Source of the DNA: Escherichia coli
Lineage (GTDB): Bacteria > Pseudomonadota > Gammaproteobacteria > Enterobacterales > Enterobacteriaceae
Assembly (NCBI RefSeq): GCF_003019035.1
Contig: NZ_CP027447.1
Strand: one strand, 5' to 3'
Length of the DNA stretch: 64,000 nucleotides
A program made the position numbers and the translations under genes. A model generated the notes under the pieces. The model saw only the letters and a list, made by a program, of their open reading frames with translations, had not been told where the DNA came from and made no database searches. Shown one piece after another: positions 1,544 through 32,432 of the stretch. The number at the start of each line of letters is the position of its first letter. Within the stretch, counting starts at the first letter, position 1.

Positions 1544-4171
1544 TTATTCTTCTTCTGGCTCGTCGTCAACGTCCACTTCCGGAGCGATTTCATCGTCCCC
1601 TTCCGCGGCACTGCCGTCGATGGTATCCAGATCTTCCTCGTCAACCGGTTCAGCAACACGTTGCAGACCCACTACGTTTTCATCTTCCGCAGTACGGATG
1701 AGGATCACACCCTGGGTGTTACGGCCCACGATGCTGATTTCTGAAACGCGAGTACGTACCAGCGTACCGGCATCGGTGATCATCATGATCTGGTCGCAGT
1801 CATCTACCTGCACTGCGCCAACCACTAAACCGTTACGTTCGGTAACCTTGATGGAAATAACCCCTTTCGTCGCACGCGACTTGGTTGGGTATTCCGCCAC
1901 TGCGGTACGTTTACCATAACCGTTCTGCGTTGCGGTGAGGATTGCGCCATCACCACGAGGTACGATCAGAGAGACGACTTTATCGCCTTCGCCTAAACGA
2001 ATACCGCGAACACCGGTGGTGTTGCAGCCCATCGCACGGACAGAAGACTCTTTAAAGCGCACCACTTTACCTTCAGCGGAGAACAGCATTACTTCATCTT
2101 CGCCACTGGTCAGGTCAACGCCGATCAGCTCATCGCCTTCAACCAGTTTGATCGCCACTTTACCGGCAGTACGCAGACGGTTGAATTCGGTGAGGACGGT
2201 TTTCTTCACAGTTCCGTTAGCGGTCGCCATGAAGACTTTCACGCCTTCTTCAAACTCGGTCACTGGCAGGATCGCAGTGATACGTTCGTCTTGCTCCAGC
2301 GGCAGCAGGTTGACGATCGGACGACCGCGCGCGCCACGAGTAGCTTCTGGCAACTGGTAGACCTTCATCGAATAGACGCGACCACGGCTGGAGAAGCACA
2401 GAATATGGTCGTGGGTATTCGCCACCAGCAGTCGGTCGATAAAGTCTTCTTCTTTAATACGTGCGGCAGATTTACCTTTACCGCCACGACGCTGCGCTTC
2501 GTATTCAGAAAGCGGCTGATACTTCACGTAGCCCTGGTGAGAGAGCGTCACGACCACATCTTCCTGGGTGATCAGATCTTCCAGGTTGATGTCTGCGCTG
2601 TTGGCGGTGATTTCAGTACGACGTTTGTCACCGAACTGTTCACGAACCAGCTCCAGCTCTTCGCGGATCACTTCCATCAGACGATCGGCGCTACCAAGAA
2701 TACGCAACAGTTCCGCGATCTGATCCAGCAGCTCTTTGTATTCGTCGAGCAGTTTTTCGTGCTCAAGGCCGGTCAGTTTCTGCAGACGCAGATCCAGAAT
2801 CGCCTGAGCTTGCTGTTCGGTCAGGTAGTACAGACCATCGCGCACGCCGAACTCTGGCTCCAGCCATTCCGGACGCGCAGCATCGTCGCCAGCACGTTCC
2901 AGCATCGCGGCAACGTTGCCCAGCTGCCACGGATTAGCAACCAGCGCGGTTTTCGCTTCTGCAGGCGTCGGCGCATGACGGATCAGTTCGATGATCGGGT
3001 CAATGTTCGCCAGCGCCACGGCTAATGCTTCAAGGATATGAGCACGATCGCGAGCTTTACGCAGTTCGAAAATAGTACGACGGGTCACCACTTCACGGCG
3101 GTGACGAACAAACGCCGCGATGATGTCTTTCAGGTTCATGATCTTCGGCTGACCATGGTGCAATGCCACCATGTTAATACCGAAAGAAACCTGCAACTGG
3201 GTCTGGGAGTAGAGGTTGTTGAGCACCACTTCACCGACCGCATCGCGTTTCACTTCAATCACGATGCGCATACCGTCTTTGTCAGACTCGTCACGCAGCG
3301 CGCTGATACCTTCCACGCGTTTTTCTTTTACCAGTTCCGCAATCTTCTCGATCAGGCGCGCTTTGTTCACCTGATACGGAATTTCATGGACGATAATGGT
3401 TTCACGTCCGGTTTTGGCGTCAACTTCCACTTCAGCACGGGCGCGGATATATACCTTGCCGCGACCGGTACGGTAAGCTTCTTCAATACCGCGACGACCA
3501 TTAATGATTGCCGCCGTCGGGAAGTCCGGCCCAGGAATGTGTTCCATCAGCCCTTCAATGCTGATGTCTTCATCATCGATATACGCCAGACAACCGTTGA
3601 TAACTTCCGTCAGGTTGTGCGGCGGGATGTTGGTTGCCATACCTACGGCGATACCGGAGGAACCGTTCACCAGCAGGTTAGGAATTTTGGTTGGCATGAC
3701 GTCCGGAATTTTTTCCGTGCCGTCATAGTTATCAACGAAATCGACCGTCTCTTTTTCGAGATCGGCCATCAGTTCATGGGCAATTTTCGCCAGACGGATT
3801 TCCGTATAACGCATTGCCGCCGCAGAGTCGCCGTCGATGGAACCGAAGTTACCCTGACCGTCTACCAGCATGTAACGCAGCGAGAATGGCTGCGCCATAC
3901 GGACGATCGTGTCATAAACCGCCGAGTCACCATGGGGATGGTATTTACCGATTACGTCACCAACGACACGGGCAGATTTTTTATAGGCTTTGTTCCAGTC
4001 ATTGCCTAGTACGTTCATGGCGTAAAGTACGCGACGGTGTACCGGCTTCAGGCCATCTCGGACATCCGGCAGCGCACGGCCAACAATGACCGACATCGCA
4101 TAATCCAGATAGGAGCTCTTCAGCTCTTCCTCAATGTTGACCGGTGTAATTTCTCTCGCAAGGTCGCTCAT
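1544..4171 (-). CDS. gyrA: DNA gyrase subunit A
   Basis: 875-aa ORF with the canonical E. coli GyrA sequence ([47 protein letters not shown]; active-site region; acidic C-terminal tail). QRDR reads [11 protein letters not shown], i.e. Ser83 and Asp87. Confidence 0.97.
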
Positions 4172-4384
4172 CTAACCGCTATCCCTCTACTGTATCCCGG
4201 ATTCAAAGGTCGGAGATTATAACACAATCGCTTGCGGACGGGTAAACGTAATGCAGGCTTCCGGGCGCTGTAGATCTACTGCGTTTTACCCCACCGCCAG
4301 CACACATCGCGCTGGCGGTGAACGACAAAGGAACAAAGACCGCAACACGCTTCCTGTGCCTCAATAAACACCAGAAATAATGGC

Positions 4385-4548
4385 TATACTCGTCATACTT
4401 CAAGTTGCATGTGCTGCGTCTGCGGGTTATTCGGCCCATCCATGGGCCTCACCCCTTACGGGGCCGCTGCAAGCAGCGTTCAAATCCGCTCCATGCGGAT
4501 TTGTCGCTCACCCCAGTCACTTACTTATGTAAGCTCCTTGGGATTCAC
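4385..4548. repeat. ERIC (enterobacterial repetitive intergenic consensus / IRU) element
   Basis: Both classic ERIC ends are present: actcgtcatacttcaagttgcatgtgctgcg at the left, and cgctcaccccagtcacttacttatgtaagctccttgggattcac at the right. The right end contains the complements of the standard ERIC2 and ERIC1R primer sequences. It is intergenic, between the gyrA promoter region and the island. Confidence 0.8.
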
Positions 4549-4599
4549 TCGCTTGTCGCCTTCCTGCAACTCGAATTATTTAGAGTATATAAATCGCCG

Positions 4600-5802
4600 T
4601 TATTTGATCACATAGGCAAGATATTGTTGTACGATTTCATCGTTTAATTCCTGACCAAGCCCAGGCAACTCTGGCGCGACATAATAGCCATTCTCGGGTT
4701 GATAATCGTAAGTACAAAGTTCCCGAATACATGCTTTCATCGCATTGGTATGATGTTCATGAATAATAAAGTTAGGTATTGCAGTTTCCATATGCAGCGC
4801 CGCTACTGTTGAAACAGGCCCGCCACAAACATGTACCTGAACGGTTGTGTCATATATATTGGCATAATCACAAATTTTCTTTCCCTCTGTAATGCCACCA
4901 CAAAGACACAAATCAGGTTGAGCTACCGCAATTGATTGTTTTTCCAGTAAATCACGATATCCCCAGCGAGTATAAGAACGCTCACCTGTTGCTATCGGAA
5001 TCGATGTTGAACGGGCAACTTTCTGCATATTATCCGAATTTAATGGATGAATTGGCTCCTCATAGAGAAAAATACGATATTTCTCTATTGCTTTGGCAAA
5101 CTGGATCGCTGAATTTGTTCCTAGAAGAGAATGAATCTCTACAATAATATCAGCATCGTCGCCCATTGCTTCACGCATAGCGGCAATTCTTGTCTCGCCC
5201 ATTTTTAATTGTTCGGCCAGTAATAAGCCAGAGTAATTTCTATTTTTGTTCTGAAAGACACAATCGCCGCCATGCAGATCGATTTCAAGCGGATCAACTT
5301 TTATCGCATTATAACCTTCTGCAATAGCGGCACGCGCTGCCTCTGCATACTCTTCAGGCGTTACTAATATTTGCCTTTTTTCGCCCCAACCAAATTGTAA
5401 CTGACTGGCGTAAGTTCTCAATTTATCGTTAGTCTTTCCCCCCAGTAGTTGATAAACCGGCACGTTTAAATATTTACCTTTAATATCCCATAAGGCAATA
5501 TCAATAGCGCTCATACCTGCGTAAAAAACATTACCACCGCCCATTCCCCAAAATGTTTTCCTGAAGAGGAATTCCCAAATCTTCTCAATGTTCAACGGAT
5601 CTTCACCAATGATGAGAGGGGCTAAATCTCTGATAATACCAACACCAGATTTTGCACCTGCGCCATAGGCTAATCCTACTTCGCCAACACCACTTATTCC
5701 AGCATCGGTATTAACCCGAATAAGTACTGGATTATAAGAGGCCATAGTTTGATCTCTTTTTTTGAGTTCGCAGTCAAAAATTTCTACAGATGTAATCTTC
5801 AT
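4600..5802 (-). CDS. Enolase-superfamily acid-sugar dehydratase (mandelate racemase/muconate lactonizing enzyme fold; D-galactonate/D-mannonate dehydratase-like)
   Basis: ORF 4600-5814; preferred start is the second ATG at 5802 (MKITSVEIF...), which has a GAGG Shine-Dalgarno 6 nt upstream. Motifs such as AIDIALWDIKGKYLNVPVYQLLGG and GERSYTRWGYRDLLEKQSIAVAQPDLCLCGGITEGKKI resemble DgoD/RspA/RhmD-type dehydratases. Substrate cannot be assigned. Confidence 0.8.
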   Translation of the reverse strand: MKITSVEIFDCELKKRDQTMASYNPVLIRVNTDAGISGVGEVGLAYGAGAKSGVGIIRDLAPLIIGEDPLNIEKIWEFLFRKTFWGMGGGNVFYAGMSAIDIALWDIKGKYLNVPVYQLLGGKTNDKLRTYASQLQFGWGEKRQILVTPEEYAEAARAAIAEGYNAIKVDPLEIDLHGGDCVFQNKNRNYSGLLLAEQLKMGETRIAAMREAMGDDADIIVEIHSLLGTNSAIQFAKAIEKYRIFLYEEPIHPLNSDNMQKVARSTSIPIATGERSYTRWGYRDLLEKQSIAVAQPDLCLCGGITEGKKICDYANIYDTTVQVHVCGGPVSTVAALHMETAIPNFIIHEHHTNAMKACIRELCTYDYQPENGYYVAPELPGLGQELNDEIVQQYLAYVIK

Positions 5803-5814
5803 AAATAACCTCAT

Positions 5815-7143
5815 TTATTTAGCATGTGAAATAACATTGTCTTTCTGGGCGTTATCTTTTTTATTATCAATTTTCATTGATAACAAAATAGCTACGGCGA
5901 TAAAGCAAAGAATCGCCTCAACAATAAATATCCCCGTGGCTCCATAATGTGTAGAAACATAGCCAAGTGATTTATTGATCAGAAAACCACCCAAACTTGA
6001 ACAAGAGTTAATAAACGCAATACTGATTGCCAGGCCTGATGGTGAAAGTAAAGCTGAGGGTAAAGCCCAGTACGGACCGTAATAACTGAGAATGCCTACA
6101 CCGTATAATGTTAATCCCATCATGCGCAGCGTCATCGAAGGTACAAGTGCGATCATTAAAAAACCGCAACCTGCAACCAACATCGGTAGTGCGGCATGCC
6201 ATTTCCTTTCATTCTTTTTATCGGAATGCCATCCCCATAATGGCATACTGAACATCGCGAAAATAAACGGAATACTCATAATCAAACCGACATCGGTATC
6301 TGTGAAATCCGATGAAAATCCTTTAACCAACCCCGGTAACCAGTAATTTGCCGCCAACGCCGCTGCCTGAATAAACATATAAGCAAATGAGAGTTGTAGT
6401 AATACTGGATTTTTAATGATTGACAGAAAAGATGCATTTGTATTTTTATTTAATGCTGCGGCTTTTTCGTTATCAGAATTAAGTTTATCGACCAATGCGG
6501 TGACTTGCGATGGTGTAAGCCAGCGGGCTTTTTCCGGACGATCTGGCAGTAAATAAAAGGTCAGCGCCCCCAATAACACCGTAGGAATGCCTTCAATAGC
6601 AAAAAGCCAGCGCCATCCTTCATAGTTACCGGTATTCATATGTTCAATAATCCAACCAGACATTGGTGCCGCCAGCACAGATGCAACTGCGATTGATAAC
6701 ATAAAAAAGCTATTCACTTTTCCACGTTCACGCGCCGGGAACCAACATGCCAGGTAGTAAACCATGCCAGGGAAAAAACCCGCTTCAAATATTCCCAAAA
6801 AGACCCGAGCGAGCAATATATGCTGGGTGTCTTTGGCAAAGAAAATTAACGTTGTTACTGTTCCCCAACCAACAATAATGGCGCTAATCCATTTTCTTGC
6901 ACCTAACTTTTGCAATCCAATACTGCTCGGAATTTGAAAAATCAAATAGGACACAAAAAATATTGAAGATATATTAGCAAAATCCTCTGGAGTAATACCA
7001 AGGGATTCATTCATGCGTAAAGCGGCAAATCCGATGTTAACACGATCCATATAGTTAAAAAAATACAGAATAAATGCTAACGGAATAATCTTCCTTTTCA
7101 CAATAGAAATGGCGTCATACAAATCTTTCTGAGGACTGCTCAT
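5815..7143 (-). CDS. MFS transporter, anion:cation symporter (ACS) family, putative sugar-acid permease
   Basis: 442-aa ORF with good SD (AAAGGTGA). Hydrophobic multi-helix protein with ACS signature regions ([33 protein letters not shown]) paralogous to RhmT in this window. Its stop abuts the dehydratase start. Confidence 0.85.
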   Translation of the reverse strand: MSSPQKDLYDAISIVKRKIIPLAFILYFFNYMDRVNIGFAALRMNESLGITPEDFANISSIFFVSYLIFQIPSSIGLQKLGARKWISAIIVGWGTVTTLIFFAKDTQHILLARVFLGIFEAGFFPGMVYYLACWFPARERGKVNSFFMLSIAVASVLAAPMSGWIIEHMNTGNYEGWRWLFAIEGIPTVLLGALTFYLLPDRPEKARWLTPSQVTALVDKLNSDNEKAAALNKNTNASFLSIIKNPVLLQLSFAYMFIQAAALAANYWLPGLVKGFSSDFTDTDVGLIMSIPFIFAMFSMPLWGWHSDKKNERKWHAALPMLVAGCGFLMIALVPSMTLRMMGLTLYGVGILSYYGPYWALPSALLSPSGLAISIAFINSCSSLGGFLINKSLGYVSTHYGATGIFIVEAILCFIAVAILLSMKIDNKKDNAQKDNVISHAK

Positions 7144-7233
7144 TTTGTTTCACCTTTTGTGCTTCAATGAATAAGAGTACTGCCCGAAGTGGATATTACG
7201 TAAAAAATAATCCAGTTCAAAAGGTGATGTGTT

Positions 7234-7249
7234 ATATCTGATATATCAG
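7234..7249. promoter_or_regulatory. Candidate operator 1 in the divergent MFS/GntR promoter region; contains the perfect 12-bp palindrome CTGATATATCAG
   Basis: atatctgatatat at 7234-7246, with the palindrome ctgatatatcag at 7238-7249. The same 13-mer recurs at 7304-7316. Located between divergent genes, one of which is a GntR regulator. Confidence 0.5.
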
Positions 7250-7303
7250 CTTGATCATTGATTGAAACACTAAGCTACAACAATAAGATATATCATTTTT
7301 GTC

Positions 7304-7316
7304 ATATCTGATATAT
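7304..7316. promoter_or_regulatory. Candidate operator 2 (second copy of ATATCTGATATAT)
   Basis: Exact 13-bp direct repeat of the 7234-7246 motif, 70 bp downstream and about 65 bp upstream of the GntR start codon. Confidence 0.45.
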
Positions 7317-7380
7317 TAGACACCTTCATTGATAAAATGATTACATATAATGGACCAGCAGCTTAATAAGGGGCAAAGGA

Positions 7381-8079
7381 ATGAGAGATAAAGCGAAACG
7401 TGACTTAAGTCACATATCAATTGAGATACCAAAATCCGTAACACAGGTCATCAAAGAAAAAATCAGGGATATGATAATTCATGGCGATCTCAGTCTTGGG
7501 CAACCGATAAGTGAAAATGAACTTTCGAATATCCTGGCGGTAAGTAAAACACCTATTCGTGAAGCTTTTATTTTACTTAGTCACAATGAAAATCTGATCA
7601 ATATCATTCCACGCAGCGGAACATTCGTTTTTTCCGTAACAGATAAAGATATTAATGACCTCATAAAAATGCGAGTAATTCTGGAGCAGGGTGCAATTCG
7701 TGAAGCAATGGAAAAGAATGAAAACAATGTCATCATTGAATTAAGTAGCATACTATCAAAATCAGCAAAAATTAATGCCGAGCGTGATACTCAGGCTTAT
7801 CTTAAATTGGATCATGATTTTCATTATGTGTTTGTTAAATACGCTGCTAATAAATACATCTCTCAGGCACACCAATTGATATCCGCACGTTTACTTGCTA
7901 TTCGTTATCGACTGGATTTCACTACGGAATATATTACCAATTCAAATCGTGGCCATGCCACTATTTTAGATATGCTAAAAAATAATAACGTTGAAGGTGT
8001 TTGTAATTTTATTACTCATCACGTAAGTAGTGGATTTACCGAGCGTGCACGAAAAATTCTCTCGTTATCTACACAGTAA
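7381..8079 (+). CDS. GntR-family (FadR/FCD-type) transcriptional regulator
   Basis: 232-aa ORF with an N-terminal winged-HTH pattern (LSLGQPISENELSNILAVSKTPIREAF) and a helical C-terminal ligand-binding-like domain. Divergent to the transporter-dehydratase pair; AGGGG SD 8 nt upstream. Confidence 0.8.
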   Translation: MRDKAKRDLSHISIEIPKSVTQVIKEKIRDMIIHGDLSLGQPISENELSNILAVSKTPIREAFILLSHNENLINIIPRSGTFVFSVTDKDINDLIKMRVILEQGAIREAMEKNENNVIIELSSILSKSAKINAERDTQAYLKLDHDFHYVFVKYAANKYISQAHQLISARLLAIRYRLDFTTEYITNSNRGHATILDMLKNNNVEGVCNFITHHVSSGFTERARKILSLSTQ

Positions 8080-8156
8080 AATGTGAATGAGTTTATAACA
8101 CTGGCACTTTTCACCTGCTATACTGCCCGACAACCTTTATAGACTCTTATGTAACA

Positions 8157-8879
8157 ATGAACACTGAAAATCTCCTTAAAAACAATAACGTAGACCACGA
8201 AGAGATCGCTAAATTTGAAGCCGTCGCCTCCCGCTGGTGGGATCTTGAAGGTGAGTTCAAACCGCTGCACCGCATTAACCCGCTGCGTCTGGGCTATATT
8301 GCCGAGCGTGCTGGCGGTTTATTTGGCAAAAAGGTGCTCGATGTCGGTTGTGGCGGCGGCATTCTGGCCGAGAGTATGGCGCGCGAAGGCGCGACGGTGA
8401 CCGGTCTGGATATGGGCTTTGAGCCATTGCAGGTGGCAAAGTTGCACGCGCTGGAAAGTGGCATTCAGGTAGAGTACGTGCAGGAAACCGTGGAAGAGCA
8501 CGCGGCAAAACATGCCGGGCAGTATGACGTGGTGACCTGCATGGAGATGCTGGAGCACGTGCCCGATCCGCAGTCAGTGGTCAGAGCCTGTGCGCAACTG
8601 GTGAAACCGGGCGGCGATGTCTTTTTCTCGACGCTTAACCGCAACGGCAAGTCATGGCTGATGGCGGTAGTCGGCGCAGAATATATTTTGCGCATGGTGC
8701 CTAAAGGTACACATGATGTGAAGAAGTTTATTAAACCGGCAGAATTGCTGGGCTGGGTGGATCAGACAAGCCTTAAAGAGCGGCATATGACTGGGCTGCA
8801 TTACAACCCGATCACTAATTCCTTTAAGCTCGGCCCCGGCGTGGATGTGAACTATATGCTGCATACGCAGAATAAGTGA
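8157..8879 (+). CDS. ubiG: Bifunctional 3-demethylubiquinone-9 3-O-methyltransferase / 2-polyprenyl-6-hydroxyphenol methylase
   Basis: 240-aa ORF with SAM-binding motif [13 protein letters not shown] and an otherwise UbiG-typical sequence ([46 protein letters not shown]). Confidence 0.95.
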
Positions 8880-9017: not shown

Positions 9018-12000
9018 TTACCATTTCACTGTCATCGACAAAAACCCTGCCGTCTGGGCAAAATCATCACTCCCTTTCTGCCACGCCACGCTACCACGCA
9101 GCGAAACTCGCTGACTGATATTGCCCGTTATTCCCACTTTTATTTCACCCCGTTGCTTCACCGCATCGTCACTGATAGTGCTGCCATCTTCTTCAATTTC
9201 CGTCGCATGGGGATCGTGATAATAATTCAGATCTAATGTTGGTATGACACCAACCGCGGTACGCCATTCGCTGTGTAAACCCAGCCGCGTTTGAATATCA
9301 TCACCCTGCGATTGTGACACCCGCGCATGGTTAGCAGCGGTGAAATCATCCTGCTGCACGCCCTGATAAATCACCTGCGCCTGTGGTTCAATCACCACTC
9401 CATGCCCCGGTAACCACTGATACCCGGCTTCCAGCGAGGCGATAATCCCCGATGAGTGGTAATGATCCGCGCCATCTTCATGTTCGGAAACATCATTGTT
9501 AAACCACGCGTATTGCAGCCAGCTATCCAGCCAGGCCCCCTGCTTCTGATTACCGTGCTGGAACCAGCTTGAGGTCAGACCAACGGCATAACCGTGGTTC
9601 TGGTTATCGGCGCGAGTTCCGGTCATATTCGAGCGGCTGTCGCCCTGGTTATCACTGTAGCCACCAACCGCCCCAAGCATCCACTCGCCATCCATGCCCC
9701 AGCGCCCGCTAAACAAGTCGCCGCTAAGCTGCACCGTAGAAGTGTCTTCATGCTGAGCCAGTTGCCCCGCTGCTGTGTAATGATAATCTCCGCCGATAAC
9801 ACGTAAATTCAGCGTCTGACCATCGCCACCAGCGTGATCGCGTCGCTCCATCACAAATGCCTGATTTGCCGCACGTAGGTTATTGAGATAGCCACCAACT
9901 TTGGCATTCAGCACCGGCTGGTAGGCAGGCGTAGGGGCTGGAGCCGGGTCGGGTGTTGGATCAGGATCCGGCGTAGGATCAGGATCTGGAGTCGGGTCTG
10001 GATCGGGCGGCGATGGTGGCGTTACTTCTTGCGATCGCAGATACCAGTCGTTGTTATCTTCCACCAGCGTGTAGTCATACGCTCCCATATTGACGTAGCC
10101 GCTGCCCGCCAGACTGAACTGCGCATTGTTTTGAAATTGCGTTGGATCGGCTGCGAAATCAACCACTTTAATGCCCGTAGATGTCGGCTCACCAATACCC
10201 GTAATGGGATTAATTACCACGGTCGTGTTGCCAGCAGTATTACCGTTCAACACCAGTTGGTCGCTTGCCGAGTCATCGCCGTTTAATTCGCTGTCGAGAA
10301 ACAACGTACCGCCACCGGTGTAATCACCGTTTACCGTGAGCGTGTCGCCAGCAACGCCATTTTGCAGACTGACAGCACCGGAAGTATTAGTTAGATCACC
10401 ATTGACCGTCACGTCTGAAAGATAAGTCAGGCTGTCAGTTTCAAGGTTGGTATTAAGCTCGCCTGTCAGCGTCACACCATCGGTGGCATTCACCAACGTA
10501 CCGTCGCCGCTAAACAGCGAGGCATCCAGCGCCTGGTTCGTATCCTGCTGCGTCAATCGCAACACAGTACCATCGGTTATGTCGATATCGCCGCCAGAGG
10601 TGGCATCGATTGAACGAATATCCTGATTTTGCCCGGTTTCAAAAACACCGTCTTCCCCCACCCACAGTGAAGAAACATAAGGAATAATATTCTCCGCTTC
10701 ACCTTTTAGCGTTCCGTCCTCCACACGTACCGCAGACGTCGCAGTGCCGCTGGCGGTCAACTCCAGCGTCCCGCCGCCACTTTTAGTCAACGTGCTTACG
10801 CTATCCAGTTGTTGCCCGGTACTATCCGCCATCAACCCGCCCCATTGCGTATCTACGCCATCCTCAACGTGTATTTCGCCATCAGCGCGCATTTCAATAT
10901 TCCTGCCCTGACCTGTTGTAGCCGAGCGAGTGTCAACATCAGTCGTCACATCCATTTCACTGTGTTGTTGGGGATCTGTGAAGATCACTGAACGGTTGTA
11001 ACTTGTGTCCCCCAATTGCGAATTATCGCTGACTTCAAGCGTACCGGAGGCGATTTGCGTATTACCGAGATAACCGTTGTTATTCGCCAGCGTTACGCGC
11101 TGATCCCCCGCATTAATGACGACATAAACGCCATTCTGGCTGGCATCACTGCCGCCAATATGTAAATCATCGCCACTGCTGATATCAACGACATCATTAC
11201 TACCAATCACTGTCCCCCCGCTGCCGCTGATTTGCAGACCGTCATTGTATGAGCTATCGCCATCCCAGGTGGTGAAATCAGAGAGATCCAATACTCCGCC
11301 ATTTAGCACGATCGATTGCGGATCGCTCTGCATTGCCCGTAAATCGGCCTGATTCCCCGCCAGCGACAATACGGCGTTATCTTCCACCACAATATCGCCG
11401 GTTAATGCCATCGACTGCGCCCCTGTCAGGAGATAGCTGCCATCTTGCGCTACCGTCAACTGTCCTTCACCCTGAATCGAGCCGGAAAAACCGCCCTGGT
11501 TTACGGTAACATTGCCGCCTGCGTCGATATTCAAAATGCCATTAGCAAAACCGGTTAATGAGTGCACAAACGTTTGTTGTGTATTGCCAACATTCAGTTC
11601 TGCCTGATACTCAGAATGAACAGTGCTGCCGACCATCAGACCAAAGCAATCCTGCGGATCGCTCTGACAGTGCGTGTCGCCGACATTCATTAACTCATCG
11701 CTGCGCCCCAACGTCACCTCGCCATTCTGGATACTCATCTCGCCGGTAAACGCATTATTGTCGGCATTGAGGACTAACTCTCCCGCTCCCTCTTTAACGA
11801 TGACTCCCGTTCCGGCAAGAGAATCAATCGCGCCATCGTTGCTGGTATTGCCTATTACCAGCGTTTTATCGGCGGCAATGTTAAATTCAGCCACACTATG
11901 ACCGATATACATAAAGCCCCCCGCCGCTGCCGTCGCCGAATGGTCATATCCCGAGGCGCTGTTATTTTCATCAATCATCACACCATTGTTTTGGTCATAA

Positions 12001-12782
12001 TTATCATCAACAGAAATATCAATAAGATACGGGGATGTGGTGCTGCTGGTATAAATTGCTCCGCCATAACCTTCTGCATAGTTATTGGTAAAGGAGGTAT
12101 TATTAATTATCGTTTTTCCTGAAAGATGTGTGTTATCCGTACTATTATCCGTAACATCAATGGCACCGCCGTCCCCATCACTATAGCTGGTTGATGTATA
12201 TGCCTGATTATTATCAAAAATGACATCACTTAAATAAATATCATTATTGATAGAATAAATAGCGCCACCTTTACCATCATTGGCGATATTATTCGCAAAT
12301 ATTGCATTAGTGATATTTAAATCCATATCACCGGCATCGTTTGTTCCCGCAGAATAGATTGCTCCGCCATAGCCTCCTGCAACGTTACTGTCGAAAATAA
12401 CATTCGCAAGATTTATCATTGAGTTTTCTTTAGCAAAGATAGCTCCGCCATTATTATATTCGCCACTAATCGAGTTATTAGCAAACAGGGTCATCCCTGT
12501 TTCATTTTGTGGTGATATCGTAAATTCAGCACTTTGCTGCAAAAATACGGCGCCACCGCTGGCATTATTGGCCATACCCGAAAAAATCACCCATTGCCCA
12601 TCGGCGATGCTCCAGTCCTGCGTAATGCCTGAAAGGCTTTGCCTGCTGGCCTGACAACTCGCTTTGATATCATATCCCTGGCATGAATCCAAAACCTCCG
12701 CGACACTGTTAACAGAGAAAAGAGATGCAATCATTGACGGGAGTAAAGATAAATACTCCTTGCGTAGAAAAATAATCCGCAT
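9018..12782 (-). CDS. yfaL: Autotransporter adhesin (AIDA-I type, YfaL/EhaC)
   Basis: 1254-aa ORF with signal peptide, a long Gly/Asn/Thr-rich beta-helix passenger domain, a Pro-rich linker (PPSPPDPDPTPDPDPTPDPDPTPDPAPAPTP) and a C-terminal beta-barrel translocator ending in W. Confidence 0.9.
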   Translation of the reverse strand: MRIIFLRKEYLSLLPSMIASLFSVNSVAEVLDSCQGYDIKASCQASRQSLSGITQDWSIADGQWVIFSGMANNASGGAVFLQQSAEFTISPQNETGMTLFANNSISGEYNNGGAIFAKENSMINLANVIFDSNVAGGYGGAIYSAGTNDAGDMDLNITNAIFANNIANDGKGGAIYSINNDIYLSDVIFDNNQAYTSTSYSDGDGGAIDVTDNSTDNTHLSGKTIINNTSFTNNYAEGYGGAIYTSSTTSPYLIDISVDDNYDQNNGVMIDENNSASGYDHSATAAAGGFMYIGHSVAEFNIAADKTLVIGNTSNDGAIDSLAGTGVIVKEGAGELVLNADNNAFTGEMSIQNGEVTLGRSDELMNVGDTHCQSDPQDCFGLMVGSTVHSEYQAELNVGNTQQTFVHSLTGFANGILNIDAGGNVTVNQGGFSGSIQGEGQLTVAQDGSYLLTGAQSMALTGDIVVEDNAVLSLAGNQADLRAMQSDPQSIVLNGGVLDLSDFTTWDGDSSYNDGLQISGSGGTVIGSNDVVDISSGDDLHIGGSDASQNGVYVVINAGDQRVTLANNNGYLGNTQIASGTLEVSDNSQLGDTSYNRSVIFTDPQQHSEMDVTTDVDTRSATTGQGRNIEMRADGEIHVEDGVDTQWGGLMADSTGQQLDSVSTLTKSGGGTLELTASGTATSAVRVEDGTLKGEAENIIPYVSSLWVGEDGVFETGQNQDIRSIDATSGGDIDITDGTVLRLTQQDTNQALDASLFSGDGTLVNATDGVTLTGELNTNLETDSLTYLSDVTVNGDLTNTSGAVSLQNGVAGDTLTVNGDYTGGGTLFLDSELNGDDSASDQLVLNGNTAGNTTVVINPITGIGEPTSTGIKVVDFAADPTQFQNNAQFSLAGSGYVNMGAYDYTLVEDNNDWYLRSQEVTPPSPPDPDPTPDPDPTPDPDPTPDPAPAPTPAYQPVLNAKVGGYLNNLRAANQAFVMERRDHAGGDGQTLNLRVIGGDYHYTAAGQLAQHEDTSTVQLSGDLFSGRWGMDGEWMLGAVGGYSDNQGDSRSNMTGTRADNQNHGYAVGLTSSWFQHGNQKQGAWLDSWLQYAWFNNDVSEHEDGADHYHSSGIIASLEAGYQWLPGHGVVIEPQAQVIYQGVQQDDFTAANHARVSQSQGDDIQTRLGLHSEWRTAVGVIPTLDLNYYHDPHATEIEEDGSTISDDAVKQRGEIKVGITGNISQRVSLRGSVAWQKGSDDFAQTAGFLSMTVKW
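9933..10015. repeat. Short tandem repeat inside yfaL encoding the (PDPDPT)n linker
   Basis: Repeating ggatcaggatc / ggatctggagtcgggtctggatc units on the plus strand, corresponding to the PDPDPTPDPDPTPDPDPTPDP linker on the coding strand. Confidence 0.6.
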
Positions 12783-13315
12783 ATTAATCTGACCATCATT
12801 TTCTATAAGACGGCATATTTAATCGCATTATACGATATGGGTTATTTTTCTTTTGTAAATTGTTCAACCCGGTGCAATGGCTATTTTGTTATTATTTCAT
12901 GAATAATATCAGTGCGTCATAATTCAAGTTAATCACCTTAAGGGATATCAGTTATGTTTAAACTGAATTAAAGTAATGAATAATTTTCTTATAATATAAG
13001 GTAAATTAACAAAATGGCTTCGCATTTAACAACAACCGAAGAGAAAACAACCATTTCGACATCAACAATCGCTTACATTCGCTTATATATTGACCATAAC
13101 TGATACATCAGATTATGTGATGACTCGTGCTTAGATCAATTTTTGCAATCATTAGCCAAAAGATTAATAAACCATCTATATCAATTTATCTAACCTATTC
13201 TTCCGTTCAAGAAATCGCCGAACAGTTATTTTTAACAAATTTTTCTCTTCCCATTGACTTTCCCGGACACCTTGTCTGACCTAAGGTGCGCGAAAGCCAC
13301 TTTTTCCTTCCTGAG

Positions 13316-18077: not shown

Positions 18078-19268
18078 TTAATGAATTTCTTTTGCCGCTA
18101 CTAGCATGACACCGCTTTTGCCCTTCATTTGCAGCGCATAGACTCCACCAGCCACTACCACTAATAGTGCACCCAGCAGATAAATCATTCGGTAGCCAGT
18201 ATGTGCAACCATCATCCCCATCACACAGGCTCCCAGCGCCAGGCCTGCATCCATCGCATTGAAGAAGAGGGAGTTTGCGACACCGATTTTATGCGGTTCC
18301 ACTGAACTGATAATCTGCGTCTGAAAAACTGGCGTCACGGAACCATACCCGATACCAATCAACGCGCCAGAAACAACCATCATTATGCTTCCCTGGGTGT
18401 AGCCGAGAACCACCAGTCCAACCGTAAAGAACACAAGGCAAGGGTAAACCACATATTTCGGTCCTTTTTTGTCGCAGACATTGCCGGTAAAGGTACGGCA
18501 GATCATCAGGAAGATAGCGTAGCAAAGCAGGAAATTACTGGCTGCCGACATCAGGTTAAGTTCGCGTGCATAAAGCGCCAGAAAAGCAGAAACCCCGGCA
18601 TACGAAAAGGTCATAAAAAAGGTGACCATCGCAAATGGCAACGCCGCGCGATCGAACATGGCGGCGAAGCCCATTTTCGGCGTTGAACCATCAGCATGGC
18701 TGATAACCGGCGGCACTGTCATAATCAGCGACAGAATAATCCCCACCGCTGCCACGCCGGTGCATAACCAGAAAGCCATATTAAAGGCCTCCCAGCGCGC
18801 CATATTCAGGCCAATCCACGGCCCGACCACCATTGCCAGCCCCATTGCCAGAGAGAAAAAACTGATGCCCTCCCCACGTCGGGAGGCCGGGATCAGCCGC
18901 GCGGAAATCGTTCCTTTTACCGTAGTGATAACCCCGAAGGTAATACCATGAAGCACCCGAATAAAAAGCAGTGATTCAATTGAGTGGCAAAAAGGATACA
19001 GCGCAGTGACCACCAAGAAGGCCAGAGAAGAGAGCCCCAGAATAGTTTTATTCGAATATTTGCCCACCCATTGCCCGGCAAAGGGGCGAATAACAATGGC
19101 GGCAATTAAAAATAAAGTCACCAACAAACCTGCTTTATCAGGAGAGGCATGCAAGCGGTCTGAGATATAAATTGGCAACAATGTTAGTAAAACATAAAAG
19201 ACGAAGAAAATAATAAAACTGATGATGGTTATTGCCCAAAAATCCTTCGTCCATAACTTCTCTTTCAT
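18078..19268 (-). CDS. MFS transporter (12-TM, drug/metabolite:H+ antiporter-like)
   Basis: 396-aa highly hydrophobic ORF with MFS loop motifs (GQWVGKYSNK, RLIPASRRGEG). Divergent from a LysR regulator. Confidence 0.8.
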   Translation of the reverse strand: MKEKLWTKDFWAITIISFIIFFVFYVLLTLLPIYISDRLHASPDKAGLLVTLFLIAAIVIRPFAGQWVGKYSNKTILGLSSLAFLVVTALYPFCHSIESLLFIRVLHGITFGVITTVKGTISARLIPASRRGEGISFFSLAMGLAMVVGPWIGLNMARWEAFNMAFWLCTGVAAVGIILSLIMTVPPVISHADGSTPKMGFAAMFDRAALPFAMVTFFMTFSYAGVSAFLALYARELNLMSAASNFLLCYAIFLMICRTFTGNVCDKKGPKYVVYPCLVFFTVGLVVLGYTQGSIMMVVSGALIGIGYGSVTPVFQTQIISSVEPHKIGVANSLFFNAMDAGLALGACVMGMMVAHTGYRMIYLLGALLVVVAGGVYALQMKGKSGVMLVAAKEIH

Positions 19269-19419
19269 ACCCTACCGCCTGTCAGGATGACGCACGCAGA
19301 CAACACTCCCGTTACTGCGGTTGCGTCAAATTGTGATGTACTTTGCAGAACAGAAGTATAAATGGCGGCATGCTATTAGAGAAATTAATCGTTTTAATAT
19401 TATTGATTAGCAAACTCTA

Positions 19420-20319
19420 ATGACTCTTACCCAAATAAATTCTTTACTCGCCGTGCTGGATTACGGTGGCTTTACTGAAGCCAGCAAGCGATTGTTCATG
19501 ACGCAGTCGGCGGTAAGTCAGGCAATTGCTGCCCTCGAACAAGAACTTGGCGTGAATATACTGTTACGCGATCGCCGTAAAGCTATACAACTGACCTCTG
19601 CAGGTCACCGCATTATGCATCATCTGCGCGCCATTAATCGGGAAGTGAACGCAGTAAAAGAGATAGCCGAGCAGGAAAAGCAGAACCCTCAAAGAACGCT
19701 GAGACTTGGTTGTTTCCCCAGCGTCTGCGCCTGTATCTTACCGGCTGTGATTCGCTACTTTGAAATTCATCATCCGAATATAAAAATTATTCCTTTTGAG
19801 GAAAATAGCACAGCGATTATTGATTCCCTTCAGAATGAATCCATTGATGCCGGTTTTGTTCATTTTCCGGTGAGCGGAATGTACTCCGTGCCCATTTATC
19901 AGGATAAATTCACCGTAGTGTTACCGCCCAACCATGCTCTGGCAAAAAACAGCACTATTACAGTGGAAGAGTTAATGGGTGAACCATTAATTATTAGTAA
20001 AGGACGCTATGAATTAAGCATTATGGCACTATTTAAAGAAAAGAATATTACCCCACAGATAAAATATGAATTTAATCACCCGGATACAGCGATCAGTTTT
20101 ATTCGACAGGGATTAGGCATCGCCTTATTACCAGAGTTAACGCTGAAAACCATTGCAGATGAATTGTGTTCCGTTCCTCTCGAACCAACCTTCTATCGAC
20201 AGATTTCGTTGCTGACTAAAGAAAAGCCGGTAGAAGGCAGTCCACTGTTTTTACTACAAATGTGCACAGAACAATTAGTGGAGAGTGGAAAATTTGATAT
20301 GAGACAGGATGGCGCATGA
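19420..20319 (+). CDS. LysR-family transcriptional regulator
   Basis: 299-aa ORF with N-terminal HTH (GGFTEASKRLFMTQSAVSQAIAALEQELGVNILLRDRRK) and a LysR substrate-binding domain. As I recall, K-12 has only the pseudogene fragment yfaH at this position. Confidence 0.8.
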   Translation: MTLTQINSLLAVLDYGGFTEASKRLFMTQSAVSQAIAALEQELGVNILLRDRRKAIQLTSAGHRIMHHLRAINREVNAVKEIAEQEKQNPQRTLRLGCFPSVCACILPAVIRYFEIHHPNIKIIPFEENSTAIIDSLQNESIDAGFVHFPVSGMYSVPIYQDKFTVVLPPNHALAKNSTITVEELMGEPLIISKGRYELSIMALFKEKNITPQIKYEFNHPDTAISFIRQGLGIALLPELTLKTIADELCSVPLEPTFYRQISLLTKEKPVEGSPLFLLQMCTEQLVESGKFDMRQDGA

Positions 20320-27307: not shown

Positions 27308-28222
27308 ATGACCGAATCAACAACCTCCTCCCCGCATGATGCGGTATTTAAAACCTTTATGTTCACACCCGAAACCGCACGGGATTTTCTGGAAATACAT
27401 CTACCAGAGCCGCTGCGCAAGCTTTGCAACCTGCAAACCTTACGCCTGGAACCCACCAGTTTTATTGAAAAAAGTTTACGCGCTTACTACTCGGATGTTT
27501 TGTGGTCTGTGGAAACCAGCGACGGTGACGGCTATATCTACTGCGTGATTGAACATCAAAGCTCTGCAGAAAAGAATATGGCTTTTCGGCTAATGCGCTA
27601 TGCCACTGCCGCCATGCAACGTCATCTGGACAAAGGCTATGACAGAGTCCCGCTGGTGGTACCATTGCTGTTTTATCATGGCGAAACCTCGCCCTACCCG
27701 TACTCACTCAACTGGCTGGATGAGTTTGACGATCCGCAACTTGCCCGGCAGTTGTACACCGAAGCTTTTCCGTTGGTGGATATCACCATCGTACCTGACG
27801 ATGAGATCATGCAACATCGGCGTATAGCTCTGCTGGAACTGATTCAAAAGCATATTCGCGACCGCGATTTAATCGGTATGGTCGACAGGATCACCACGCT
27901 TTTGGTTAGAGGCTTCACTAATGACAGCCAGCTACAAACACTGTTTAATTATCTGCTGCAATGCGGCGATACCTCCCGTTTCACCCGTTTTATTCAGGAG
28001 ATTGCCGAACGTTCACCACTACAAAAGGAGAGATTAATGACTATTGCTGAACGGCTACGGCAGGAAGGACATCAAATTGGCTGGCAGGAGGGTAAATTAG
28101 AAGGCATGCATGAACAAGCCATTAAAATTGCCTTGCGCATGCTGGAACAGGGCATTGATCGTGACCAGGTGCTCGCGGCCACTCAGCTAAGCGAAGCCGA
28201 TCTGGCAGCGAATAACCACTAA
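27308..28222 (+). CDS. yfaD: Rpn-family recombination-promoting nuclease (YhgA-like, PD-(D/E)XK, transposase_31 fold)
   Basis: 304-aa ORF ([36 protein letters not shown] ... YSDVLWSV ... YCVIEHQS) typical of the RpnA-E family. No flanking inverted repeats seen. Confidence 0.85.
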
Positions 28223-28262: not shown

Positions 28263-29066
28263 TCAATAACTACCTTTTACGCGTGGCCCATTTTTGCCTG
28301 ATTCAAACATCGCCAGTCGTTGATCCAGGGCATCGCTGTAGAGCATCGTGTCAACGCCAACAGCGACAAAGTTCGCTCCCCACGCCAGGCATTGCTGCGC
28401 CATATCAGGAGCCACAGCCAGAAAACCAGCAGCTTTACCCGCAGCACGGATCCGCCGAATACTGGTTTCAATAATTCGCTGCACTTCCGGGTGCCCGGCG
28501 TTATCCGGGTAGCCCAACGACGCAGAAAGATCCGCAGGTCCAATAAACACGCCATCAATCCCTTCGACGTCGAGGATTTCGTCCAGGTTATCCAGTGCCG
28601 TCTTACTTTCCACCTGCACCAACAGACAAAGCGAATCGTTGACGTGCGCCATGTAATTCTCAATGCGTCCCCAGCGAGCAGCCCGTGCCACACTGGCCCC
28701 AACACCACGCTCACCGTAGGGAGGATAGCGCGTGGCAGACACCACCTGACGTGCCTGATCGGCAGTATCGACCATCGGGATCAGTAGAGTTTGCGCGCCA
28801 ATATCCAGGACTTGTTTAATCAGCGACTTACTGGCTTCCACCGGACGGATCACGGGTTGGCTGGCATAGGGCGCTACCGCCTGTAGCTGGTGATAAAGAT
28901 CCTGAATGGTGTTTGGCGCGTGCTCCCCGTCAATCAGCAACCAGTCATAACCGGAGGTGGCGGCAATTTCTGCCATATAAGAAGTAGTCGAGCTTAACCA
29001 CAGACCAATTTGCACTTCGCCCTTGCGTAAACGTTCTTTAAAGGGATTGCTTAATAATGCGTTCAT
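28263..29066 (-). CDS. rhmA: 2-keto-3-deoxy-L-rhamnonate aldolase
   Basis: ORF 28263-29369. Preferred start is ATG 29066 ([26 protein letters not shown]), giving 267 aa; HpcH/HpaI aldolase family. Confidence 0.9.
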
Positions 29067-29083: not shown

Positions 29084-30373
29084 TTAATGATGTGCCACGT
29101 CGGTCTGCGCAACAGTGCGATTTACACGCAGAGTGAAAATAATCAGCGAACCGATGACCGCCACCGCTGCCAGCGTCAGTAATCCCGCCGCATCGCTGGA
29201 AAATAACGTTTCTGCTTTCACGCGCAGGATCGGGGCAATAAACCCGCCCACTGCACCAAACAGGTTTACAAAACCAATCCCCGCAGCCAGCGCCGTACCG
29301 GAAAGCAGTTGTGTCGGCATCGTCCAGAACACCGGCTGCACGGCAATAAACCCGATGGCTGCAACACACAGCGCTACGATCGCCAGTACTGGAGAAAGCA
29401 GCCCGGACAGACCAATACCAATGCCCGCCGCCAGTAATGTCAGCGCTGCGACATTACGCCGTTCGCCGGTTTTATCGGAATAGCGCGGAATAAGCCAGGT
29501 TCCAAACAAGGCCGCAACCCACGGAATGGCGGTGACCACCGACGCCGTAAAGCCCACTTTTGTCCCCAGCAATGCAGCAACCTGGGTCGGCAGGAAGAAA
29601 ATTAATCCGTAAACCGCTACCTGAATGGTCAGGTAGATAATCGCCAGTTGCCAGACTCGCCCATTACGCAGCGCATCGCTCAGTCGGGAAGTCACTTTCT
29701 GTTGTTCTTCACTTGCCAGTTGGTTGATAAGCAACGTTTTTTCTTCTTTACTCAGAAAACGTGCCTGCTCCGGTGTGTCATCAAGCCAAAAGAATGTGAA
29801 TACCCCAGCGCCGACTGCCAACAATCCTTCAATAACAAACATCCAGAACCAGCCGGGATGCCCCATAAATCCATGCATCTCCAGCAGCGCGCCAGAAAGC
29901 GGTGATCCCAGTGTTAACGCCAGCGGTGCGCCCATATAGAACAGCCCCATAATGCTGGCGCGATTACGCTGCGGAAACCATTGCGAGGTGAGATAAATCA
30001 TACCAGGGAAAAACCCAGCCTCCGCAGCACCAAGCAGAGTGCGAACAATCAGAAATTTCGCTTCAGTATCGGCCCATGCCATGGCAGCCGAAAGAAATCC
30101 CCACAGCAGTGTTGTCGTACCAATCCAGGTTCTTGCCCCCAGTTTGCGCATCAAAAGATTCGCCGGAACCCCCAGAAACGCGTATACCACAAAGAAAATG
30201 CCTGCTCCCAGCGCATAAGCTTCATTACTCAGCCCGGTATCAATCTGGTAGGTCTGTTTGGCAAAACCAATATTCGAACGGTCGAGAAACGCCAGCACAT
30301 ACAGCGCCAACATAAACGGAATTAAACGCGCGCGGTTTTTCTTCACCACGGCGTCAAGCAAAGCGGTGCTCAT
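29084..30373 (-). CDS. rhmT: L-rhamnonate transporter (MFS, ACS family)
   Basis: ORF 29084-30412. Preferred start is ATG 30373 ([38 protein letters not shown]), giving 429 aa. Confidence 0.9.
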
Positions 30374-31649: not shown

Positions 31650-32432
31650 TTATGAGGCCTGTAAGTCAAAGGGACTTTTCCATCCCAACAGACGTGAAAT
31701 ATCCCTGGCGCAGGCAATGGCCTTGCCCGCCAGATAATCACGGTATTCTTCATTGATTTGTAAGCGGGTACCGACCACCGAGATCGCAGCGGTAAGCTCG
31801 TTATTGGCGTTAAACACCGGCGCAGCGACACAACGGACATCGGCGTAATCTTCGCCGTTGTCATAGCTCCAGCCCTGACGGCGAATACGCGCCAGTTCTT
31901 CGTGAAGTTGCTGTGGATGAGTAATCGTTGTGGGTGTCGCCTGCTCCCAGATCAGCCCTTCGATAATACTTTGCTGTACAGCTGCAGGTTGCCAGGCAAG
32001 CAGGCATTTCCCGATGCCGGAGCGATAAAGCGAAAGGCTTTTTCCTTCATGGGAACGCACGCTGATAGTGGCTGATGACTCCACTTTCAAAATGTAATAA
32101 GCGCTGCCGTTATCAATAATCCCCAGGTGACATAACAGCCCGGTGGTATCCATCAGTTGCGTCAAACGCGGTCGAGCCAGTTCCCGGAGATCCATCTTGC
32201 TTAACGCATGACCGGAAAGCTCCACCAGCTTGGTCCACAAACAAAAATTTTCCTGGTGATCAAGGCTAAGAAAACGCTGACGCCTGAGTTCATTAAGCAG
32301 CAAATAGGCCGTGCTTTTAGGGATCCCCAATGTGTCAATGATCGTCGCAGCACTACAGGGGCCAATGCGGGCAATCAAATTGAGAATATCAATAGCCCGT
32401 GTCAGGGCGGGAACTTTGCTTGATTCCAACAT
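31650..32432 (-). CDS. rhmR: IclR-family transcriptional regulator of the rhm operon
   Basis: 260-aa ORF with N-terminal HTH ([41 protein letters not shown]) and an IclR effector domain. Confidence 0.9.

Follow-up and report, generated by a model that had tools for sequence, protein, structure and literature searches.

The D-galactonate system dgoRKADT of Escherichia coli combines a GntR/FCD regulator (DgoR) and a transporter (DgoT) of the anion:cation symporter (ACS) family within the major facilitator superfamily (MFS) with an enolase-superfamily dehydratase (DgoD), a kinase (DgoK) and an aldolase (DgoA). In the L-rhamnonate system rhmRDTA, an ACS transporter and an enolase-superfamily dehydratase are found together with an IclR regulator and an HpcH-type aldolase. 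The original ttu operon of Agrobacterium vitis uses a tartrate dehydrogenase, not an enolase-type dehydratase. Here we consider a three-gene island between gyrA and ubiG in a 64,000-nucleotide stretch of the E. coli contig NZ_CP027447.1 (assembly GCF_003019035.1), called the window below; it is 100% identical to E. coli strain SCU-301 (NZ_CP051751.1). The original prediction, made from the letters of the window, saw in the transporter and the dehydratase of this island a pair paralogous to the rhmD-rhmT pair 23 kb away, and asked whether the island feeds into the aldolase RhmA. Our analysis favours a different view, in which positions 4600-8079 probably constitute a self-regulated cassette for the uptake and dehydration of a hydroxy-carboxylate, with the product being processed elsewhere.

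Layout and proposed working of the cassette

In the scheme that we propose, the GntR/FCD protein would bind two ATATCTGATAT palindromes and repress the MFS-dehydratase operon until substrate or product is bound. The TtuB-like ACS transporter would take up the acid in symport with protons, like other transporters of the ACS family, and the enzyme would bind Mg2+ via E222, E248 and E274. The H324/D297 dyad would then take the C2 proton and H224 would protonate the leaving 3-OH, following the D-galactonate dehydratase mechanism. The product would be a 2-keto-3-deoxy acid, to be handled by enzymes encoded elsewhere in the genome. The parts of the island and its two flanks are the following.

1544-4171, minus strand: gyrA, left flank of the island
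4227-8186 (right end approximate), no strand: the island, i.e. the segment that varies relative to K-12, between the gyrA 5′ region and about codon 10 of ubiG
4385-4598, no strand: ERIC/IRU-like intergenic repeat, directly 3′ of the dehydratase stop codon
4600-5802, minus strand: dehydratase of the enolase superfamily (mandelate racemase subgroup), 400 amino acids, Pfam MR_MLE_N and MR_MLE_C
5815-7143, minus strand: MFS transporter, 442 amino acids, TtuB-like branch of the ACS family, Pfam MFS_1
7144-7380, no strand: divergent control region, 237 bp, between the MFS-dehydratase operon and the regulator gene
7230-7249, no strand: putative operator 1, TGTTATATCTGATATATCAG, palindromic core ATATC-T-GATAT, first copy of a direct repeat
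7300-7319, no strand: putative operator 2, TGTCATATCTGATATATTAG, 70 bp from operator 1 and 90% identical to that copy
7381-8079, plus strand: GntR-family regulator with an FCD ligand-binding domain (FadR subfamily), 232 amino acids, divergently transcribed
8157-8879, plus strand: ubiG, right flank of the island

When aligned to the gyrA-ubiG intergenic region of K-12, homology stops at 4226 and restarts at about 8186, and the island has a GC content of 34-43% against 52-55% in the flanks. Its three genes encode the dehydratase, the MFS transporter and the GntR/FCD regulator, with no aldolase among them. The MFS gene lies upstream of the dehydratase gene and is co-transcribed with it, the two being separated by 12 nt. 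The control region is AT-rich (34% GC) and contains two 20-nt repeats with the consensus TGTyATATCTGATATATyAG. The palindromic cores of both repeats are kept in Salmonella while the surrounding sequence has diverged, and a role of the two repeats as operators is plausible.

The regulator matches the Pfam domains GntR (E 6.5e-14) and FCD (E 3.5e-21), and the residues of the FCD metal site, D144, H148, H192 and H214, are invariant among eight cassette regulators. The open reading frame (ORF) starting at 7381 includes the winged helix-turn-helix (wHTH) and FCD domains in full, and none of seven cassette orthologs is longer. Its ATG is shared with Salmonella and an AAGGGG Shine–Dalgarno sequence is located 7 nt upstream.

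At the right-hand end, positions 8080-8186, comprising the ubiG promoter region and the first ~10 ubiG codons, differ from K-12, where the start of UbiG reads MNAEKSPVNHNVDHEE. Since the first ~10 codons are affected, the boundary of the island haplotype lies inside ubiG, and the upstream sequence that drives ubiG in island-positive strains is not that of K-12. Both the promoter region of ubiG and the ERIC-like repeat are common to the island strain and Salmonella, but not to K-12. This repeat, which we take to be ERIC from its sequence, matches a median of six places per E. coli genome, with several places in almost every genome; a related element occupies the equivalent position in Salmonella, downstream of the enzyme gene. 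A single Rfam match (AaHKsRNA22, 29 bits, below the gathering score) falls inside the ERIC-like repeat.

Enzyme and transporter, and their relation to the rhm genes

The ORF at 4600-5814 opens four codons early; the real start is at 5802 (MKITS), with a GAGG Shine–Dalgarno sequence before it, in agreement with the Prokaryotic Genome Annotation Pipeline (PGAP). The protein has the N-terminal capping domain and the C-terminal modified TIM barrel of the superfamily, as judged from its Pfam matches (MR_MLE_N, E 1e-22; MR_MLE_C, E 3e-58) and from the structures 2GL5 and 4E6M of a 92%-identical ortholog. These two entries ('putative dehydratase', Salmonella Typhimurium) were the best match in a PDB search with E 4e-259; among the 60 of 73 matches listed, ManD and galactonate dehydratases followed at ~1e-45 and rhamnonate dehydratases at about the 46th place with 1e-31. 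The same order was obtained with the NCBIfam models: galactonate dehydratase 249 bits, gluconate/galactonate dehydratase 239, ManD 204 and rhamnonate dehydratase 125. The first of these scores is below the cut-off of 311 for the DgoD equivalog NF010624, and the last is below the cut-off of 393 for the RhmD equivalog NF011968, which the genuine RhmD passes with 822 bits. We have therefore filed the enzyme only as a DgoD-like member of the mandelate racemase subgroup of the enolase superfamily.

Comparison with K-12 proteins (DgoT, GarP, GudP, ExuT, LgoT, DgoD, GudD, GudX and RspA, in addition to the rhm proteins) points in the same direction. The dehydratase scores 164 bits with DgoD, to which it is 29% identical, 159 with RspA and 86 with RhmD, and a neighbour-joining tree with bootstrap places it in one clade with DgoD and RspA, leaving RhmD outside. 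The window contains a third enolase-superfamily gene, menC (o-succinylbenzoate synthase, 45220-46182, minus strand), which is very distant and served as outgroup.

Active-site residues were compared in an alignment with DgoD, RspA and RhmD, in a family alignment and in a survey of 63 relatives. K168, E222, H224, E248, E274, D297, H324 and E349 show no or almost no variation among relatives of at least 45% identity, and DgoD has the same catalytic set except for an Asp in place of E222. The metal ligands E222, E248 and E274, situated at the ends of β3, β4 and β5, are invariant in the family and align with three carboxylates of DgoD, presumably D183, E209 and E235 in DgoD numbering. H224 is found two residues past the first metal ligand, where it aligns with a His of DgoD and RspA; in DgoD we take this general-acid His to be H185. 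It is kept in 37 of 38 tabulated relatives of at least 40% identity. The dyad formed by H324 (β7) and D297 (β6) is invariant in the family alignment, and among the relatives of at least 45% identity H324 is present in all and D297 in all but one (L050, with Glu). The KxK motif at the end of β2 is incomplete, having only the second Lys (K168), with Ala, Cys or Ser at position 166; the equivalent residue is Thr in DgoD and Gly in RhmD. A missing first Lys is typical of DgoD-like acid-sugar dehydratases, not of mandelate racemase itself. The enzyme family further contains a His-rich motif, H348-E349-H350-H351, which reads Q-E-x-x in more distant relatives and is absent below ~40% identity. An active site of the RhmD type has no β3 His and a single His acting as both acid and base. 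RhmD indeed has Trp at the position of H224 and Ser at that of E349, whereas both residues are present in the island enzyme, which hence does not have an RhmD-type active site. Because its catalytic residues are conserved, the island enzyme is very likely active, with DgoD-type and not RhmD-type machinery.

Instead of dehydrating the imported acid, the enzyme could in principle act on it as an enolase-superfamily racemase, epimerase or cycloisomerase. Such activities do exist in the superfamily, e.g. the 3,6-anhydro-L-galactonate cycloisomerase that was matched with E 2e-30 in the PDB search. It also fits that no dehydratase model was passed, that the Glu at 222 is unusual and that the HEHH motif is the family's own; to our knowledge, the structural-genomics target (STM2273) has remained without a published function despite acid-sugar library screens. 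However, the enzyme retains every acid/base residue of the DgoD type (H224, H324/D297), all of its closest characterised relatives are dehydratases, and several loci encode a LarA-like racemase separately, as a neighbour. We regard an activity other than dehydration as quite improbable.

The transporter matches Pfam MFS_1 with E 1e-55. It reached 269.7 bits with TIGR00893 (D-galactonate transporter subfamily; cut-off 395) and 270.7 with HpaX (cut-off 615). Since the genuine RhmT is also below cut-off (252 bits), the cut-offs of the ACS models do not cover the TtuB-like branch. Among K-12 ACS transporters it scores 218 bits with RhmT and at most 96 with DgoT, LgoT, GarP, GudP and ExuT. In a neighbour-joining tree the island MFS and RhmT fall into a branch together with proteins labelled 'ACS family tartrate transporter', while a second branch consists of DgoT, GarP, GudP and LgoT, with ExuT as the outgroup. 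All members of the TtuB-like branch, from Sporomusa to Streptomyces, carry EAGFFPG and DRxN[IV]GF; DgoT, GarP and GudP have EAPxFP in place of EAGFFPG. Many foreign TtuB-like proteins, including those of Firmicutes and Actinobacteria, are 36-50% identical to the island MFS and thereby closer to it than RhmT.

The rhm genes with which the island was compared are arranged as follows.

28263-29066, minus strand: rhmA (yfaU), 2-keto-3-deoxy-L-rhamnonate aldolase, from translation and RefSeq annotation
29084-30373, minus strand: rhmT (yfaV), ACS-family MFS transporter
30430-31635, minus strand: rhmD, L-rhamnonate dehydratase, 822 bits with NF011968 (cut-off 393), RefSeq agrees
31650-32432, minus strand: rhmR (yfaX), IclR-family regulator, from translation and annotation

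The rpnE gene, annotated as an 'ISNCY family transposase' (27308-28222, plus strand), adjoins rhmA.

According to the ORFs and the annotation, the genes of both loci are located where the original prediction had placed them and have the content that it described. The four motifs that it quoted all occur in the translations, two of them, including DRVNIGFA, in the island MFS and the other two in RhmT. Both transporters are coupled to an enolase-superfamily dehydratase, as both dehydratases match MR_MLE_N and MR_MLE_C; the regulators differ as was said, with GntR plus FCD in the island (Pfam) and IclR for rhmR (record annotation). The rhm locus, but not the island, has an aldolase of its own, RhmA, which is 44% identical to GarL. 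The notion of a paralogous pair holds only in part. Each island gene is homologous to its rhm counterpart, with 31% identity over 436 amino acids (E 1e-70) for the transporters and 25% over 362 amino acids (E 1e-22) for the dehydratases. For the transporter it can be maintained, RhmT being the closest of the six K-12 ACS transporters compared (218 vs ≤96 bits). It cannot for the dehydratase, which is not specifically RhmD-like (DgoD 164, RspA 159, RhmD 86 bits), nor for the pair as a unit.

The shared motifs had been put forward as ACS-family signature blocks common to the two transporters. Being present across the whole TtuB-like ACS branch, they characterise that sub-branch and are no evidence of a local duplication. 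Loss of the catalytic residues and placement in unrelated subfamilies had been named beforehand as possible refutations: the residues of the island dehydratase are intact, and in the neighbour-joining trees it belongs to a different subfamily from RhmD. As the trees of the two genes are incongruent, the two modules were put together independently of each other, and the pair is not a duplicated unit. On these comparisons the island is best seen as a distant relative of the rhm genes, not a copy, and the proposal of a second rhm-like module appears to describe ordinary family-level homology between acid-sugar genes and no discovery.

We therefore consider it very improbable that the island pair is a duplicate of rhmT-rhmD, or shares common descent with it as a unit, and that its product is cleaved by RhmA. 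The homology of both proteins to their rhm counterparts, the position of RhmT as the closest K-12 ACS paralog and the distance of 23 kb between the loci would fit this idea, and RhmA has been reported to be promiscuous. On the other hand, the dehydratase groups with DgoD and RspA, with RhmD outside, in conflict with the transporter tree; its catalytic machinery differs from that of RhmD (H224 vs Trp, E349 vs Ser); RhmT is less similar to the island MFS than are TtuB-like proteins from other phyla; and the island is of foreign GC content and resembles a mobile cassette found in unrelated genomic contexts. In addition, the rhm operon is under its own IclR regulator, so that feeding into RhmA would necessitate co-induction.

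Distribution, gene neighbourhoods and the fate of the product

The native 4E6M sequence, rebuilt from the alignment, corresponds to Q8ZNH1_SALTY ('Dehydratase protein'), i.e. STM2273. An exact look-up of this sequence revealed the Salmonella gene order ubiG-GntR-MFS-dehydratase-gyrA at the places shown; STM2274 and STM2275 are presumably the adjacent MFS and GntR genes in LT2. The sequence was found in 33,100 index blocks and the locus is nearly universal in Salmonella. Between E. coli and Salmonella, amino acid identity is 92% for the dehydratase and 89.5% and 88.6% for the other two island genes, with 80-83% at the nucleotide level; the flanking genes show 91.2% (ubiG) and 91.4% (gyrA). The values for the island thus equal those of the flanks, and the site is the same. 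In spite of its low GC content, the island seems to date back roughly to the divergence of E. coli and Salmonella and to have been lost from most E. coli.

Among 5426 complete E. coli genomes, 141 (2.6%) contain the island, always as a single chromosomal copy; they include IAI39, which we take to be a phylogroup F reference strain. In 140 genomes the match extends over at least 80% of the island with 95-100% identity; one copy is disrupted by IS1. Annotation was read for four carriers (SCU-301, IAI39, ECCNB12-2 and OkiPb01700), and in each of them the dehydratase and the MFS gene are given as intact.

A genome scan confirmed at least 595 relatives of the dehydratase. Eighty loci were taken, a haphazard sample without Salmonella or Escherichia, and the neighbour statistics refer to the 47 of these in which the enzyme is at least 45% identical, using BLAST clustering of the neighbours and searches with reference proteins. 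A 90%-identity protein cluster containing the dehydratase was found to hold the neighbouring MFS as well, with an MFS protein as representative; this is presumably a clustering artefact caused by a fused gene call, and as a consequence the closest relatives are missing from the dehydratase database search.

The same three components, a regulator, a transporter and the enzyme, are found together in Budvicia, Caballeronia, Morganella, Gilliamella, Enterobacter and Pseudomonas. The Morganella trio lies ~4.5 kb from an integrase gene, that of Gilliamella has a non-MFS transporter, and in Enterobacter insertion sequence (IS) fragments separate the enzyme from the regulator. A GntR/FCD regulator is encoded within ~7 kb of the dehydratase in 22 of the 47 loci. 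The transporters comprise ACS-type MFS proteins (8 loci), APC permeases (7), TRAP (5) and TTT systems (3-4), and ABC transporters are also among the neighbours. Across these loci the dehydratase keeps its GntR/FCD regulator and swaps the type of transporter freely. Further recurrent neighbours are a D-2-hydroxyacid dehydrogenase (6/47), MmgE/PrpD (4/47), LarA-like proteins (two clusters with 3 loci each) and an ApbA-like reductase (3/47).

Enzymes that might act on the product were sought with RhmA, GarL, DgoA, DgoK, YagE and KdgK as queries. KDPG-type (DgoA-like) aldolases are present in 2 of the 47 loci, DHDPS-type aldolases in none, a KDG (2-keto-3-deoxygluconate) kinase (KdgK) in one, 6 kb away, and a DgoK-like gene in none. 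An HpcH-type (HpcH/HpaI) aldolase, the fold of RhmA and GarL, is encoded directly upstream of the dehydratase in a single locus, L018. This arrangement might be taken to favour the cleavage by RhmA discussed above, but the aldolase of L018 shares no more than 24% identity with GarL, gave no BLAST match to RhmA and is the sole case in 47. Given the near-absence of such genes, the missing aldolase is a trait of the whole family, and E. coli is no exception in this respect. Either housekeeping enzymes may take over the product, or it may already be a central or near-central 2-keto acid.

Some relatives occur in other settings. In ten loci from Firmicutes and gut metagenome bins (L024, L029, L040, L042-L046, L048 and L056) there are two to four tandem dehydratase paralogs, which often adjoin APC-type amino-acid permeases, LarA-like racemases or MmgE/PrpD, a context unlike that of the proteobacterial cassette. 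In Oxalobacter aliiformigenes (L016, 8001-14224) the ortholog is the first gene of an operon that also encodes an amino-acid-type ABC transporter, a 4-OT-family tautomerase and a split UxaA-type (SAF + GD_AH) dehydratase, with electron-transfer flavoprotein (ETF) genes behind it; here the more complete pathway might give a clue to the substrate. Fungal homologs with 60-66% identity are named 'galactonate dehydratase'. The characterised DgdA and DgdB of Aspergillus niger provide a lead here, their orthology to these homologs being no more than that.

The second of the two fates mentioned would apply if the cassette were a self-sufficient module, with a transporter truly of the tartrate type and a dehydration product that is itself a central metabolite. 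A tartrate isomer would yield oxaloacetate, glycerate would yield pyruvate and tetronate would yield 2-oxo-4-hydroxybutyrate. This would account for the near-absence of aldolases and kinases in the 47 loci. The partner transporters (TtuB-like MFS, TRAP, TTT, APC and amino-acid-type ABC) are typical of di- and tricarboxylates and small acids, the recurrent neighbours (D-2-hydroxyacid dehydrogenase, LarA-like, MmgE/PrpD, ApbA) are enzymes of small 2-hydroxy and 2-keto acids, and homologs of the MFS carry the name 'ACS family tartrate transporter'. Stereochemically, L-(+)-tartrate matches D-galactonate in its arrangement at C2/C3. However, the tartrate names are homology-derived labels, and the characterised enolase-type D-tartrate dehydratase is not among the 60 of 73 PDB matches listed. 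E. coli and Salmonella moreover have housekeeping routes for KDG and 2-keto-3-deoxygalactonate (KDGal), which render an aldolase within the cassette unnecessary, and no experimental support for a self-sufficient module was found. We consider it rather unlikely.

A somewhat more doubtful proposal is that the enzyme family, with its E-x-H ... H-E-H-H pattern and Glu as the first ligand, catalyses an undescribed reaction leading to a product that does not need an aldolase. It might, for instance, dehydrate a tartrate isomer or a C3/C4 dihydroxy acid directly to oxaloacetate, pyruvate or 2-oxo-4-hydroxybutyrate, in an oxygen-stable reaction that is independent of Fe-S. If true, this would explain why a minimal cassette of regulator, transporter and enzyme is found across Proteobacteria, Firmicutes and even fungi, and also why there are two structures without a functional assignment.

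Several observations weigh against the self-regulated uptake and dehydration cassette that we favour. The scarcity of aldolases and kinases near the 47 enzymes fits a classical hexonate or pentonate route less well. The island enzyme scored under the curated cut-off of every NCBIfam dehydratase model, and its first metal ligand is Glu (E222), as in the whole family, where DgoD, RspA and RhmD have Asp. The operators and the promoter are deduced from the sequence, and a scan for promoters and terminators gave no enrichment relative to shuffled sequence. No functional paper on STM2273, 2GL5 or 4E6M was found in the searched literature, the source names are all generic, and STM2273 occurs only as 'Dehydratase' in a table of single-nucleotide polymorphisms. 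Likewise, nothing on this enzyme family was found in the literature searched on tartrate dehydratase or acid sugars within the enolase superfamily. We know of no functional assignment to which the two crystal structures of the ortholog have led.

Finally, PGAP calls the regulator 'frameshifted' from 7337 (7337-8079) in all four E. coli records examined. This flag is most likely an artefact of an over-long reference protein, because the ORF contains the full domains, is at least as long as its orthologs, retains the metal-site residues and begins at the ATG shared with Salmonella behind a Shine–Dalgarno sequence. The possibility of the regulator being a pseudogene was rejected on account of its full length relative to orthologs and the shared ATG. 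Together with the restriction of the island to 141 of 5426 genomes, one of them with an IS1 insertion, the flag could be taken to mean that the E. coli island is a decaying remnant, cryptic and non-functional, whose regulator is frameshifted and which 97% of strains have lost. We find this highly improbable. The dehydratase and MFS ORFs are annotated intact in four carriers, and 140 genomes match at least 80% of the island with 95-100% identity. No catalytic residue is missing, and the regulator ORF spans wHTH and FCD at a length equal to or above that of its orthologs, with the Salmonella-shared ATG and a good Shine–Dalgarno sequence.

The cassette can be described as an orphan that is core in Salmonella and recurs in unrelated bacteria, in places next to an integrase or IS elements. 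Identification of its substrate would add a catabolic trait separating Salmonella and a minority of E. coli, including IAI39, from other E. coli, and would give a function to a family of at least 595 relatives. The comparison with rhm further indicates that shared motifs in MFS transporters mark sub-branches and not recent duplications.

Other features of the window and comparison with known systems

Elsewhere in the window, a second accessory-looking pair lies between glpQ and inaA (18078-20319), consisting of a LysR regulator (19420-20319, plus strand) and an MFS transporter (18078-19268, minus strand); K-12 presumably has only the yfaH pseudogene at this place. The elaD gene (ElaD/SseL-family deubiquitinase, 52936-54151, plus strand) is annotated as a frameshifted pseudogene. 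In yfaL, which encodes an autotransporter adhesin (9018-12782, minus strand), the 5′ part at 11700-12900 has 39-43% GC against ~52% elsewhere in the gene, and this low-GC N-terminal part suggests a mosaic or variable passenger domain.

Of the systems with which the island can be compared, the STM2273 locus of Salmonella Typhimurium LT2 is its ortholog. The two loci agree in gene content, gene order and position between gyrA and ubiG, as well as in the operator cores and the ERIC-like element; they differ in that the Salmonella regulator is annotated with a longer N-terminus than the one of E. coli. The rhmRDTA system shares with the island an ACS transporter of the same TtuB-like branch and an enolase-superfamily dehydratase. 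Its own features are the IclR regulator, the HpcH-type aldolase and an RhmD without the β3 His (Trp) and with Ser at the position of E349. The island MFS shows 36-50% identity to the TtuB-type 'tartrate transporter' branch and carries its DRxN[IV]GF and EAGFFPG motifs; the label of this branch is derived from homology, and the placement of the island MFS within it rests on sequence.

The likeness to dgoRKADT extends to all three components, a GntR/FCD regulator (DgoR), an ACS-family MFS transporter (DgoT) and an enolase-superfamily dehydratase, and no K-12 paralog is closer to the island enzyme than DgoD and RspA. The active sites of DgoD and the island enzyme are laid out alike, with a His two residues past the first metal ligand and a His/Asp dyad. 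Nevertheless, the first metal ligand is Glu in the island enzyme and Asp in DgoD, the regulator is only 23% identical to DgoR, and the island MFS belongs to a different ACS branch from DgoT (23% identity, EAGFFPG vs EAPAFP). Finally, dgoRKADT includes the kinase DgoK and the aldolase DgoA, both of which the island lacks. Taken without this kinase and aldolase, dgoRKADT is the closest characterised system in architecture and mechanism, and the island enzyme is an uncharacterised addition to a well-known type of system.

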